Shown in pieces: positions 3,893 through 60,919 of a stretch of 64,000 nucleotides of DNA. Source of the stretch: a virus. Position 1 is the first letter of the stretch. Every line of letters starts with the position of its first letter. The position numbers and the translations under genes are program-made. Below the pieces are notes generated by a model. The model saw only the letters and a list, made by a program, of their open reading frames with translations, was not told where the DNA came from and ran no database searches. The DNA is taken from positions 1 through 64,000 of the IMG/VR virus record IMGVR_UViG_3300021138_001972; one strand, given 5' to 3'.

Positions 3893-5020
3893 ATGAACAA
3901 GCTAGAATCTCACATCCGCGCTCACACCTTTGACGTGCCCACGCTGGTCATAGACATCGACAAGGTAGAGAGCAATTATGTACAGCTCAAATCGGGCATG
4001 CCCACAGCCCACATACACTATGCTGTGAAAGCCAATCCTCATCCTGCCATACTGGCTCGCTTGGTCCAGCTTGGCTGCAGGTTTGATGCTGCCAGTACAC
4101 AAGAGATTGAAATGTGCTTTGCTGCCGGAGCTAAACACACAGACATCAGCTATGGCAACACCATCAAGCGAGCTCAGGACATAGCCTGGGCGCATGCGCA
4201 GGGTATCACGCTGTTCAGCGCCGATAGTGAGGAAGAGCTACACAAGCTGAGCCAGCATGCTCCAGGCTGTGCTGTGTTCATACGCTTGTTGGTCAGCAGC
4301 GCAGAAGCTGAATGGCCATTATCACGCAAGTTTGGCTGCAGCACCAGTTATGCCATCCCACTGTTGGATCACGCACGCGATCTTGGACTGGACCCAGTGG
4401 GTATCAGCTTCCACGTGGGCAGCCAGACCAAACATCCCTACATGTGGTATGACTGCTTGGATACTGTAGCGGCCATATGGCATGATGCCCGTGCTGAAGG
4501 TCACAAGCTGTGGTTGTTGAACATTGGTGGTGGTTTCCCAGCCTACTACGGCGTGGACATCACAGATAACAAAACCTATGGTGCGACCCTAATGGACCAA
4601 GTAGCGCAGAGGTTTGAAGGTGCAGAATACATCATGGCTGAGCCAGGCAGAGGCATGACTGGATCAGCTGGGGCCATCGCTGCTGAATGCGTGTTGGTAT
4701 CGCGCAAGACGCCTGGTGATCCTGTGCGTTGGGTATACCTCAACGTGGGCAGATTCAGCGGTCTAGCAGAAGCAGAAGGCGAGAGCATCAAGTATCAGTT
4801 CACGGTGCTGGACAAGGAATCTGAGGCAACGTCTCCCTGCATAGTGGCAGGACCAACCTGTGACAGCGCCGATGTGCTGTATGAGCGCAACAAGGTAGAG
4901 TTCCCTGTGAGCCTGACCTCAGGTGACAGGGTGATAATACATACCTGTGGTGCCTATACCAGCACCTACAGCACCATTGCCTTCAACGGGTTCCCGCCCC
5001 TACAGGTCGTAGCTATCTAA
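3893..5020 (+). CDS. Ornithine/lysine decarboxylase, PLP-dependent fold type III
   Basis: HYAVKAN (PLP lysine), SFHVGSQ, NIGGGF, EPGR, GPTCDSAD, GAYT; AEWPLSRKFG typical of alphaproteobacterial ODC; ATG 3893 follows AGGGG. Confidence 0.93.
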   Translation: MNKLESHIRAHTFDVPTLVIDIDKVESNYVQLKSGMPTAHIHYAVKANPHPAILARLVQLGCRFDAASTQEIEMCFAAGAKHTDISYGNTIKRAQDIAWAHAQGITLFSADSEEELHKLSQHAPGCAVFIRLLVSSAEAEWPLSRKFGCSTSYAIPLLDHARDLGLDPVGISFHVGSQTKHPYMWYDCLDTVAAIWHDARAEGHKLWLLNIGGGFPAYYGVDITDNKTYGATLMDQVAQRFEGAEYIMAEPGRGMTGSAGAIAAECVLVSRKTPGDPVRWVYLNVGRFSGLAEAEGESIKYQFTVLDKESEATSPCIVAGPTCDSADVLYERNKVEFPVSLTSGDRVIIHTCGAYTSTYSTIAFNGFPPLQVVAI

Positions 5021-50901: not shown

Positions 50902-52357
50902 TCACGGATGTGTATCTTTGTAAGCAGAAAAATCAGCTGCGAGCGCATCGTGCTTGGCATTCAGCTCCTGTAGAGCCTTGACCAACAGAGGTATCAGTGC
51001 TGTTTCACCAAGACCCAAGAATGGTTCTGCTGTGCCATCTAACAGCGTAGTACTGTTCTCATACACGATGCTATCAATGTAAGCGGTGTCTTTCAACACT
51101 GTCTGTACATCTTGTGCTATAAAACCAACCTTGGTACCTTGGGTGAAGTTGTGCACCGGATGCGGCTTCCAATCAAAGGTCACAGGATTGAGGCTCATCA
51201 CCATGTCCAGAGTCGATCCCAGAGGCGTGATGTTATCTTTATACTGTTGGTCAGATGTAGCTATAGTTGCACTTGTAGCAAAGATTTGGCTGTTAACCTG
51301 CAATCGATAATTGCCGTTGGATGCAGTGTATCCTATCAATAGGTTACCAGCATTGCCAGTGGCAGGGAATGCTTGTACCAATCGCATCTGTTCAGTGTAG
51401 ACTTCTGCACCAACAGTGCCACTGTAAGTACTGAACACTAATGCATTGCCGAATCCAATACCAATGTTGCTGCCGCCCGATGCGCTGTTAGCAAATTGTA
51501 TGCCGCCTGCATTGGTTCCAGCACCATCTACAACTATAGTAGCTGTGCTGCCAGATGGCAGTGTTGTTGGTCCAACTAGTAGATTGCCTTGCCCACTGAG
51601 CTGCATGATATTAGTGGTTCCGGCGTACCATTTGAACTGACGTGTGGTAACAGTGCTTGGTATGCTGTACCATAGCGTGCCGCTTTCTATGCCCAGGGCA
51701 AAGTCAGTGGCTGCTGGGCCAATAGCTGGATATAACAGCAGTTTGGTTCCCGCTGACCGTGTGGTAAACGTTGGAGCAGCTATACCGTTGACGTTCCATG
51801 CAATGCTGTTCTGCACAGCATTGGTCAGTGATATGTTGCTACCGGCCACTATTACGTTGCTGCCAACGAATAAGTTGCCTGCTATGCCGGCACCGCCTGT
51901 GGTCTGTATCGCACCACTCACAGTCGATGTAGCTGCTGCAGTGTTGAATACTATGACAGCATTGGTTACGGTGCCGCCGTTCCAAGTAGGACCTGTTTCA
52001 CCGATAGGACCAGTAGGACCTATGTAACCTGTTGGACCAGTGATACTTGGACCAGTTGGACCTGTGTATCCGATTGGTCCGGGTACCGTGCTGGTAGCAC
52101 CAGTTGGGCCAGTTGCACCTGTGTTAGCTGCTGTACCTGCTGCACCAGTAGCACCTCTGAGGCCAGTAGGACCAGTTGCACCAGTGTTCACTGCCGTACC
52201 AGCGATGCCTTGCGGGCCCTGCACGCCTGTGGGGCCAGTTGCACCAGTGTTTACTGCTGTACCTGGGGTGCCGCTTGGACCCGTAGGCCCTCCTAGCGGG
52301 CCGGTTGGGCCAGTAGGTCCTTGTATGTCTACCACGGGATAAGAATAAACGCTCATG
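50902..52357 (-). CDS. Collagen-like tail fibre with C-terminal intramolecular chaperone (peptidase S74)
   Basis: G-P-T/G-A-T triplets; [34 protein letters not shown]; start taken at MSVYSYP. Confidence 0.88.
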
Positions 52358-52403
52358 AGCACTCGCAGGATTGATCTTGGATATTTAGCCCATAAATATC
52401 TGC

Positions 52404-52880
52404 ATGGTCTACTATCCTTTACCTCTGACACCGCCGGGCGTGAACATCCGACAGGACTACAGTCCTACCAATCAATACACCATACCGCAATCTCAGACGG
52501 ATTGCTGGCCCATGCGCTTGGCGCCAGACTGGCAGCAGTGTGTGATAGCTGCAAATCAAAGCACATTTTGGAGCCAGCAACAGGGTACCATGCTGCTGTG
52601 GCTCAGCATAGACCCCAATGGCATCAACGTGATCCCGCCAGGATTTGCTGGCAATCGCATCAATCTCAACGGTCTGGGCAACACTGTGTGCTACTATGCT
52701 GACACTCTCAGCGCCGATCAGATAAAACCTGCGCAGGCTGCATGGCCTCTGAACGTGAACCAGCTGGGCACTGGATCAATTCCCGCATACTGGTTGAATA
52801 TACAGAACATCGACAACACTCAGAACGCCTACTATCTGCAGTTCCACTACTACAACCAGTACACCTTCTTCATACAATAA
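52404..52880 (+). CDS. Hypothetical late protein
   Basis: TAAATA-5 nt-ATG; rich in N, Q and Y. Confidence 0.7.
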
Positions 52881-54343: not shown

Positions 54344-55042
54344 ATGGACGACAAGGTCAAGATAGCAGTACTTTTCAGAGGACCTGTGCGTCCAACAGTG
54401 CAGAGCACCGTGGCTCGCTGTAGTGAATTCATGGCCCAGATGTCTAACATACAAAATGCCACAGTAACTACCTATCTAGCCACATGGCGAGGATGGAAGA
54501 ACAACACCGCAGCCGAGCTGCTGGCCACAGATATGTTCGACAATGTTATCATGCAGACTGAGCCAACAGATGCACAGATTGAACGTGCAACCAAGATCAA
54601 GAACCTTCCTAACGGTGCTGAGATACGTCCTGTTTTCAACATGTACTATCAGAGCAAGACTGCGTTGGACATGATAGCACAAGCAGACGATTACCATTAC
54701 ATCGTGCACACTCGCACTGATATTGCCATGCAACTTGGGCAGTTCCTGCCACAATGGTTCGATAATAATGCTTATACTGCCCCGCACGTACCAGGTGTGT
54801 TAGCACCGCACGCACCTCATGTGCCAGCAGAAGAACAATGGATGTGCGATCAGTTCGGAGTTGCTACAACACCGATGATGCATGCCGCGTGGAATTACGG
54901 CAGCATCGCAGAGCTTGGACAGAGGATAGAAGCAGCAGATAAACCAGAAGCAGTGCTGCAAAACATGATCACCGAGCGTAACATACCAACAAAAGCGCCA
55001 CAGTATCTGGTTTGGCAGCTTGACCCGCAGCGCAATAGCTGA
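54344..55042 (+). CDS. Hypothetical protein, possibly glycan-related
   Basis: KIAVLFRG, YIVHTRTD and CDQF pattern reminiscent of GT-like proteins; assignment uncertain. Confidence 0.55.
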   Translation: MDDKVKIAVLFRGPVRPTVQSTVARCSEFMAQMSNIQNATVTTYLATWRGWKNNTAAELLATDMFDNVIMQTEPTDAQIERATKIKNLPNGAEIRPVFNMYYQSKTALDMIAQADDYHYIVHTRTDIAMQLGQFLPQWFDNNAYTAPHVPGVLAPHAPHVPAEEQWMCDQFGVATTPMMHAAWNYGSIAELGQRIEAADKPEAVLQNMITERNIPTKAPQYLVWQLDPQRNS

Positions 55043-55155
55043 TATAATTAGATACATAACGGATGGGGACAGTGCTTGCGAGATCCCGTCAGCATCCGAG
55101 ACAGCAAGAGCCACAGGCCTTTGGATAAAGGTATCAAGGAGGAAAAGTGCGGACA

Positions 55156-55506
55156 ATGACATACGTAGTTACAGATAATTGCATCAAGTGCAAATACATG
55201 GATTGTGTCTCTGTCTGCCCTTAGCTAGTAGATTGTTTCTACGAGGGCGACAACATGCTGGTGATCAATCCCAGCGAGTGCATAGATTGCGGTGTTTGCG
55301 AACCAGAATGCCCTGCTGATGCCATATTTCCTGACACCAACAAGAAGCAGGATCTCACGTCATGGTTGAAGTTAAATGATGACTACAGCAAGGCTTGGCC
55401 GCGAGTTACCAGGGCACGCCCACACGATCCGCTAGCCAAGGAATATGACGGCGAACCAGACAAGTTTTGGAAATACTTTTCCAAGGCCCCTGGACAGGGT
55501 GGTTGA
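55156..55506 (+). CDS. fdxA: 7Fe/8Fe ferredoxin interrupted by an in-frame TAG at 55222-55224 (recoded gene or pseudogene)
   Basis: [52 protein letters not shown]; AAGGAGG upstream. Confidence 0.85.
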
Positions 55507-55510
55507 TACC

Positions 55511-60919
<5,409 letters not shown>

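Follow-up and report, generated by a model that had tools for sequence, protein, structure and literature searches.

Programmed bypassing has so far been documented mainly for gene 60 of bacteriophage T4 and for one yeast mitochondrion. In T4, the homing endonuclease MobA is copied together with a 50-nt gap, which protects the topoisomerase gene against nicking and which ribosomes bypass (10.1101/2022.08.31.505936). Pairing of the mRNA that leaves the ribosome has been proposed to drive this bypassing (10.1101/2024.12.09.627546). In the mitochondria of Magnusiomyces capitatus, short inserts termed byps are found at 81 sites in many genes, where an unused sense codon occupies the A site (PMC5009743). 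The stop-hops of Weiss, Dunn, Atkins and Gesteland (1987), as summarised in PMC5009743, were engineered in E. coli: when decoding is slow at a stop codon in the A site, the tRNA in the P site re-pairs one codon further on, such that a single amino acid is encoded by nine nucleotides (a codon, the stop and a second codon that is cognate or near-cognate). The same summary describes these synthetic events as non-programmed and of low efficiency, and the 2016 review lists natural stop-hops as ‘not known’ (PMC5009743). In addition, some phages equipped with suppressor tRNAs read TAG as sense (10.1101/2021.08.26.457843). Here, we describe a gapped ferredoxin gene, fdxA, of large phages that is probably a small-scale counterpart of the T4 gene 60/MobA pair, as an analogue and not as a member of the MobA element family. 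Full-text literature searches returned no description of a gapped phage fdxA.

The window analysed here covers positions 1 to 64,000 of an IMG/VR virus record of 87,334 bp. CheckV estimates the completeness of the record at about 17%, which makes its source a very large freshwater phage. The fdxA gene and its signals lie on the plus strand. A near-consensus promoter of the sigma-70 type at 55020–55048 (TTGACC, 17 nt, TG-n-TATAAT; 11 of 12 positions match and the TG is there) overlaps the end of the preceding ORF and, according to the alignment, is common to L002 and L003, two relatives without the insert. It is followed by a leader (55060–55145), within which the strong Shine-Dalgarno sequence of fdxA, AAGGAGG (55136–55142), can be seen directly in the sequence. 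The first part of the gene, codons 1–22, extends from the ATG at 55156 to 55221, as defined by reading frame, translation, Pfam and alignment to PDB entries, and ends with CCT (Pro22, 55219–55221), the proposed take-off codon. The coding gap of six nucleotides consists of an in-frame TAG (55222–55224), supported by the sequence, the alignment and contigs from other runs, and of CTA (55225–55227), which, judging from the family-wide form C-(C/T)-N, we propose as the landing triplet for the peptidyl-tRNA-Pro. The second part (55228–55506) resumes with the codon GTA and continues as VDCFYEG... to a DUF3470 tail and the stop codon TGA at 55504–55506; it is defined by Pfam, PDB alignment and pN/pS.

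How does this gene compare with an ordinary ferredoxin gene? Relative to its closest relatives, L002 (82% amino acid identity) and L003 (77%), the window fdxA contains a single, exact insertion of six nucleotides, TAG CTA, just as the earlier note had proposed from the sequence. Its statement that both halves are intact, with all cysteines and a strong Shine-Dalgarno sequence, is likewise borne out: all cysteines of a 7Fe FdxA are kept in the translation, which matches the Fer4 families of Pfam and DUF3470 (E 4e-11). The best solved relative is Azotobacter vinelandii ferredoxin I (1frh, E 6e-35, residues 3–103), and the alignment to it places a two-residue gap exactly at TAG-CTA. The phage protein resembles this 7Fe ferredoxin (1frh, 1axq) in its cysteine pattern, which holds one [3Fe-4S] and one [4Fe-4S] cluster, and in its DUF3470 tail. 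In the solved ferredoxins, however, CP-VDC is contiguous, whereas the phage gene carries the 6-nt gap; the 7Fe ferredoxin motif CxxCxxxxCxxxCP ... CxxCxxCxxxCP is present and becomes contiguous only with the six nucleotides skipped. Elsewhere in the record, TAG is an ordinary stop, including at positions 5000, 44125 and 49162, which the earlier note had named. The whole window is made up of long ORFs under table 11, and TAG terminates 9 of the 77 long ORFs of the 87-kb record, so the window has no TAG-sense code. TAG is also an ordinary stop in the relatives, G001 and G006 among them. The features of an amber-recoded or suppressor-dependent gene are not found in the 87-kb record, about 17% of the genome, and the coding map requires no other interrupted gene. 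When the record was scanned generically for further junctions of a stop and a short gap, hundreds of uninformative candidates came up, and a megablast search of the locus against GenBank phages gave no match.

The gap is not confined to this phage. At the same fdxA codon, CC(T/G) TAG followed by two or three nucleotides is present in 61 loci, which represent 37 distinct phage genes; this recurrence at one codon is far beyond chance. The 6-nt form, CC(T/G) TAG C(C/T)N, accounts for 34 distinct genes and the 5-nt form, CCG TAG CG, for the other three (L173, L174 and L191), where GTA follows the gap and read-through would run into a second TAG out of frame. The take-off codon is CCT in 31 of the 37 genes, combined with the gaps TAG CCA (13 genes), TAG CTA (nine), TAG CTT (seven), TAG CTG (one) and TAG CCG (one), and CCG in six, combined with TAG CG (three), TAG CTG (two) and TAG CCG (one). 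The landing triplets of the distinct 6-nt genes are thus CCA (13), CTA (9), CTT (7), CTG (3) and CCG (2). The insert is scattered on the fdxA tree, and well-supported branches force at least four gains or losses.

The searches behind these numbers left the bases of the gap increasingly free. A degenerate pattern of Cys-Pro, TAG, any codon and Val-Asp-Cys-Phe-Tyr matched 16 other IMG/VR contigs, and swapping TAG plus NNN for six free bases returned the identical 16 contigs and no more. Over 241 million metagenome records (JGI), the free 6-nt pattern gave 45 matches: 40 are fdxA genes, all with TAG, and the remaining five are unrelated chance matches. Finally, any insert of 1–15 nt was allowed. 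The Cys-Pro codons required before it were TGC-CCN or TGT-CCN for IMG/VR and TGC-CCN for genomes of 185,579 species (one genome per species). These scans added only the three fdxA genes with a 5-nt gap and three 1-nt indels in cellular assemblies, which look like errors. No TAA, TGA or sense codon takes the position of TAG in a gapped fdxA in any collection scanned, and none of IMG/VR, the 241 million metagenome records and the 185,579 genomes yielded an fdxA lengthened by sense codons at this site. Pattern matches outside fdxA (L098, L112, L114, L116, L134, L175–L180, most of L181–L221, and L222–L230) were set aside as chance matches or canonical genes.

Purifying selection acts strongly on the codons 3' of the stop. 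For the 37 codons 3' of the gap in 33 TAG-bearing genes, pS is 0.83 and pN 0.11, giving a pN/pS of 0.135, and for the 22 codons inside the cassette pN/pS is 0.26, with the proviso that the divergence behind both ratios may largely predate the spread of the cassette. The gapped genes keep all cysteine ligands and contain zero further stops, frameshifts or second lesions. Taken with the recurrence of the gap, the in-frame stop of the window fdxA is almost certainly a real and conserved feature under selection. Reinitiation after the stop was considered and rejected. The TAG-bearing genes have no conserved internal start, the gap and its surroundings lack a start codon, and the sole downstream Met (NMLV) is Phe in many carriers, so separate initiation of the second part is unavailable to them.

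A clue to the origin of the gap comes from the gene upstream. In T4-like contexts, the gene order is clamp loader gp44, a variable position, fdxA, frd and td. In TAG-bearing loci, the variable position is taken by an ORF of 264–268 amino acids with DUF723 repeats and a T5orf172/MUG113 nuclease domain, which matches phrog_681 ‘endonuclease’ (E 1e-37) and phrog_559. By tblastn, a free-standing endonuclease gene or its 3' remnant lies directly upstream of fdxA in all 47 main-class TAG loci that have upstream sequence, and in each of the 47 it ends 7 nt before the fdxA ATG. The gene is full-length in L089/L107, L102/L141, L104, L120, L124, L126, L139 and L131, the last being cut by the contig end; the other main-class loci retain an endonuclease piece of 94–141 residues or a 3' remnant of 12–68 residues. 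In insert-less loci, fdxA directly abuts gp44, and none of 68 such loci has an endonuclease match upstream of fdxA below E = 1. We are thus highly confident that the gap is linked to a homing-endonuclease cassette. As the insert moves together with an endonuclease gene or what is left of one, its origin is best seen as selfish or protective.

But what about the window itself, which belongs to a lineage featuring no endonuclease gene? This lineage (the window, L101, L105, L106, L110, L111, L123, L128 and L140) shares a leader of about 100 nt that is absent from the insert-less L002 and L003. An nhmmer profile of the main-class leaders found nothing significant in the window, Rfam returned no family for the leader when applied to the window locus and four relatives, and the 87-kb record contains neither an intact endonuclease gene nor a detectable homologue. 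The connection is provided by L174, a relative of the window phage that is syntenic with it (the same exonuclease, a GNAT gene and a 221-aa ORF with 66% identity) and has the 5-nt gap. The window leader is identical to the remnant in L174 at 72 of 85 nt (85%, E 2e-16), and the L174 remnant in turn matches residues 201–250 of the intact L089 endonuclease (E 1.5e-10). Through these two steps, the window leader at 55060–55145 is recognized as the decayed 3' end of a homing-endonuclease gene of the T5orf172/DUF723 type. The lineage also retains a trace of mobility: the mean pairwise identity over the window lineage (eight relatives) is 77% in the last 150 nt of the upstream ORF, rises to 92% in the leader and 97.6% in fdxA nucleotides 1–105, and falls back to 76% in nucleotides 106–351. 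A conserved leader and fdxA 5' end between diverged flanks is characteristic of a tract that has been converted or is mobile.

The cassette also brings an RNA helix of its own. In 26 main-class TAG-bearing genes, the third-base entropy of codons 2–3 and 16–22 is 0–0.5 bit, as opposed to 0.8–1.6 bit in 59 insert-less genes, whereas codons 5–15 and everything 3' of the gap vary freely at third positions in both gene sets. Hitch-hiking with the upstream endonuclease would not have left codons 5–15 free to vary. In the window, the frozen synonymous block of codons 17–21 (55204–55218) ends immediately 5' of the take-off codon and comprises UGUGU (55204–55208) and UGUCUGC (55212–55218). The latter is the partner of a long-range helix in which the 7–8 nt just 5' of the AUG pair with codons 19–22, in the window as GCGGACA (55149–55155) with UGUCUGC; the main-class version of the strands is GGCAGACU. 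A candidate second helix strand, suggested by frozen synonymous sites, is ACAUA in codons 2–3 (55159–55163), whose pairing with UGUGU in codons 17–18 can lengthen the helix. RNAalifold found the helix independently, with pair counts taken on 28 distinct sequences, and two pairs co-vary: G-C is replaced by A-U in L083 and L137, and the two cassette classes differ by U-A versus A-U. The mean duplex energy is -12.2 kcal/mol in TAG-bearers versus -4.0 kcal/mol in insert-less genes, from which the helix is missing, and the minimum-free-energy fold of the window includes it (z = -2.1). The frozen synonymous block is accounted for by this predicted base pairing. As for its function, the helix probably aids the hop; one possibility, modelled on gene 60, is that it re-forms on the mRNA leaving the ribosome and drives forward movement. 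Alternatively, it could control initiation and be unrelated to hopping. A complementarity between GGCUAGG in the leader and CCUUAGCC of the gap was discounted as a side effect of the near-palindromic CTAG at two TAG codons.

Which rules do the bases in and around the gap obey? The patterns point to rules of pairing and not to rules of protein sequence. Insert-less fdxA genes use all four Pro codons at the take-off position, whereas gapped genes use two of them. In the 6-nt genes, the triplet after TAG is always C-Y-N, which as amino acids would be Leu or Pro and whose first two bases are able to pair with a Pro anticodon at G36 and G35. The landing triplet ends in G after two of 31 CCT take-offs as opposed to six of six CCG take-offs, a covariation of the third bases that is suggestive only, given the few independent lineages. 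An ordinary tRNA-Pro(UGG) is encoded by the window phage and also by G002 and G006. On CUA, the anticodon UGG would form C:G, U.G and A:U, and this bears on the worry in the earlier note that CUA is a poor match for tRNA-Pro: a central G.U pair does remain in the window, but the worry is eased, since base 2 of the landing triplet is C or U throughout the family and both pair with G35. The GCG landing triplet of the 5-nt variants mismatches the Pro anticodon at the first base. That TAG is never replaced by a sense codon is expected if the cluster-binding loop does not tolerate two additional residues and if stalling of the A site depends on the stop. The stop-hop geometry put forward in the earlier note is thus, from sequence comparison, the best-supported decoding, considering the CCU or CCG take-off, the C-Y-N landing, the 5-nt variants, the lack of a sense version in the collections scanned and an RNA constraint exclusively on the 5' side.

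We propose the following scheme. TAG CTA would be a coding gap that belongs to a mobile cassette with a homing endonuclease, and this cassette would have invaded phage fdxA genes. By analogy with T4 MobA and gene 60, the endonuclease would cut fdxA alleles without the cassette, and a gap placed in the most conserved stretch of the gene (VCP/VDCF) would break the endonuclease target and render the carrier genome immune. A sense insertion at this position would disturb the Fe-S loop, for which reason the gap may have been built to be invisible to translation. When the ribosome has reached CCU (Pro22) and its A site holds UAG-C, a context that terminates poorly, the peptidyl-tRNA-Pro would unpair, the mRNA would slip by six bases, and the anticodon would re-pair with CUA, or with CCA, CUU, CUG or CCG in the same step in relatives. 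Decoding would then restart at GUA and yield the canonical CPVDC ferredoxin. The cassette-specific helix, predicted between the 8 nt before the AUG plus codons 2–3 and codons 17–22, would end at the take-off codon, and the endonuclease gene of the window has itself decayed to the leader of about 100 nt. We consider it probable that the gap is decoded by a tRNA-Pro stop-hop that gives the canonical ferredoxin. The wider account, that this is a natural programmed one-codon stop-hop by which homing endonucleases immunise their own target, an essential Fe-S motif, through a skipped gap of 5–6 nt, helped by pairing of the start region with the take-off region on the exiting mRNA, is the one we favour on balance. 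Nuclease activity, target immunity and the hop itself are what we infer from the conserved patterns of the locus.

The rival explanations differ widely in how well they fit these observations. An error of sequencing or assembly in this record alone would be conceivable for a window that is a metagenome assembly, but Logan contigs assembled independently from four runs in four studies, one of which may be the source sample, span 55222–55227 without an indel, and the insert occurs in 60 other loci from many samples; this explanation, which the earlier note had also raised, is already refuted. A dead gene is a more serious proposal: a stop-containing scar left by the cassette or its repair would inactivate fdxA in all carriers, and the apparent selection would predate a recent horizontal spread. 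Such a spread did take place in the window lineage, where the cassette region is near-identical and the flanks are at about 77%, and fdxA is an auxiliary gene. However, the 37 distinct carriers are without a second lesion, while most of the endonuclease genes have already been lost or reduced to remnants of 12–141 residues. Codons 5–15 have had time to diverge synonymously, while TAG, CCK, CYN and the helix strands have remained fixed and co-varying, the 22 codons of the cassette itself still show the pN/pS of 0.26, and promoter, Shine-Dalgarno sequence and start codon are intact. We regard a dead gene as very improbable.

Read-through deserves more weight, but we still consider it unlikely. 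Here, a near-cognate tRNA or a phage tRNA with a CUA anticodon would read or suppress the amber codon to give CP-X-L-VDC, and the stop may act as a regulatory gate; the 5-nt relatives would be served by a -1 slip giving CP-VA-VDC. Pro-UAG-C is a poor context for termination, and as suppression and -1 slip each add exactly two residues, a protein extended by two residues is possible on paper. With synonymous sites nearby at saturation (pS 0.83), a functional protein of this kind should have left some carriers in which TAG has mutated to sense, yet fdxA genes with two sense codons at the site are missing from IMG/VR, the 241 million metagenome records and the 185,579 genomes alike. G002 (81922–81992) and G006 (66003–66074), the latter a relative of the window phage, encode a tRNA with a CUA anticodon within large tRNA arrays. 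G006, however, has a 5-nt gap, in which suppression meets TAG CGG TAG out of frame, so tRNA-CUA cannot be the solution of this phage, and G001 (289 kb, 80% complete) has only four tRNAs, none of them CUA. None of the 28 tRNAs and six tRNA-like hits of the 87-kb record is a tRNA-CUA, a count that leaves room for read-through as the record covers about 17% of the window phage genome. The composition of the gap also argues against a translated insert: as residues, Leu and Pro cannot stand in for each other, whereas C or U opposite G is a natural pairing, and the take-off and landing triplets show covariation in their third bases. Stimulators of read-through normally lie 3' of the stop, whereas the sequence constraint here sits 5' of it. 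The suggestion of the earlier note that the stop is a regulatory gate on an electron donor, dependent for example on a phage suppressor tRNA, finds no support in an insert that travels with a homing endonuclease, in 87 kb without a tRNA-CUA, or in a relative that has this tRNA and a gap it cannot rescue. The 5-nt variants could themselves use a -1 slip (C-CCG to CCC, CP-VA-VDC), so gap length excludes suppression as the general mechanism and not every alternative. Frameshifting by -1 or +1 was rejected for the 6-nt form, since neither restores the frame, and general considerations spoke against pyrrolysine, RNA editing and a micro-intron. What probability remains belongs to something else again.

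Finally, we would like to place the proposed stop-hop into the context of the described systems. The comparison with T4 gene 60 and MobA relies on Huang 1988 and Bonocora 2011 as summarised in 10.1101/2022.08.31.505936. As in that summary, a free-standing homing-endonuclease gene adjoins a conserved gene, and the latter contains an extra stretch, here presumably untranslated, that is absent from endonuclease-free alleles; both halves of the fdxA gene are under selection. The take-off codon is directly followed by UAG, with CCK-TAG in 37 of 37 genes, and take-off and landing triplets form a pair that one tRNA may read. To these the fdxA cassette adds a helix of its own, which, unlike the structure in gene 60, is a long-range one that reaches to the translation start region. 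The gap is 5–6 nt and not 50, the landing match is often imperfect (CUA), and the target is fdxA instead of a topoisomerase subunit gene. The endonuclease is of the T5orf172/DUF723 type, whereas MobA is of the HNH type, and neither homology to MobA nor the 50-nt gap of gene 60 is found in the fdxA loci. No cassette-specific nascent peptide is evident: the 22 residues before the gap are an ordinary FdxA N-terminus that insert-less genes share.

The likeness to the synthetic stop-hops lies in the arrangement of codon, stop and cognate or near-cognate codon, and in the A-site stop as the trigger, as summarised in PMC5009743. Their low efficiency and non-programmed nature, again as summarised there (PMC5009743), speak against a hop at fdxA; unlike them, the fdxA case is natural, spans about 37 genes, has flanking RNA signals of its own and travels with a mobile element. 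The byps of M. capitatus are likewise short, seemingly mobile inserts that are corrected at translation, and two-out-of-three pairing suffices for them, but they lack a homing-endonuclease partner and reside in yeast mitochondria (PMC5009743). With the TAG-recoded phages (10.1101/2021.08.26.457843), the fdxA loci share an in-frame TAG in a phage gene and a tRNA-CUA in some relatives; the difference is that TAG is an ordinary stop here, that one site is affected, and that the 5-nt versions are unreadable by a suppressor.

If the proposed decoding is true, fdxA would offer a 6-nt, sequence-simple and phylogenetically rich case of bypassing. It could easily be moved into reporters, as 37 natural variants are at hand that include 5-nt forms, matched and mismatched landing codons and helix covariants. 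The minimal signals that let a ribosome slide, the question whether pairing of the exiting mRNA drives sliding, and the way in which a homing endonuclease shields its own genome within an indispensable motif would thereby become testable. Beyond decoding, gapped genes of this kind are annotated as pseudogenes or split ORFs, and the auxiliary metabolic genes of large phages are therefore undercounted.

At the locus L173 (9269-10051 and 10080-10197), one site upstream of fdxA has taken nested invasions: a 260-aa HNH-type endonuclease ORF lies between gp44 and a T5orf172-type endonuclease remnant, and fdxA with a 5-nt gap follows downstream of both. A further 5-nt-gapped locus, L191, is a 3.8-kb contig (PUKE01000014.1) filed under a Nitriliruptoria MAG. 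Its order of gp44, an Nth-like gene, gapped fdxA, frd and td is T4-like phage synteny, and the contig is probably a phage fragment wrongly placed in the bacterial MAG by binning. In three cellular fdxA genes, L188 (529-552), L192 (4280-4303; Mesorhizobium sp. NFR06) and L217 (2268-2291), this CCN|GTN junction is one nucleotide longer (e.g. CCCC); these are likely homopolymer sequencing errors or fresh frameshifts, distinct from the phage gap.

In the window, a small hairpin (GUAGA-UUGUU-UCUAC, 55228-55242) opens with the resume codon, immediately 3' of the landing triplet. This is a feature of the window's lineage, and it is not conserved in the main class of carriers, whose loci all have an endonuclease gene or its 3' remnant directly upstream. 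Two minus-strand genes with collagen repeats converge on fdxA, encoding a 1796-aa protein of mostly Gly-X-Thr collagen-like repeats (55511-60901) and a 509-aa protein with a Peptidase_S74 chaperone domain (50902-52431); both products are probably fibres.

Two large phages, G002 (the record of the TAG-bearing L085) and G006 (that of the 5-nt-gapped L174), each encode within a tRNA array a tRNA-like gene with a CUA, i.e. amber-suppressor, anticodon: L146 1745-1815, equivalent to G002 81922-81992 (Rfam tRNA, 44.8 bits), and L231 504-578, equivalent to G006 66003-66074 (41.1 bits). ARAGORN called both at a relaxed threshold only, and TAG still serves as a stop in both phages. Odd or intron-bearing tRNA-like genes also occur in the arrays of G002 (L149 1099-1176), G006 (L232 2965-3091) and the window's own record past the window's end (71912-71986, 76730-76801 and 82096-82211). 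The anticodon loop is 8 nt long (ttgt) in one of them and 6 nt in some others; an Arg(ccg)-like gene and an Asn gene are interrupted by introns of 42 and 55 nt, respectively.
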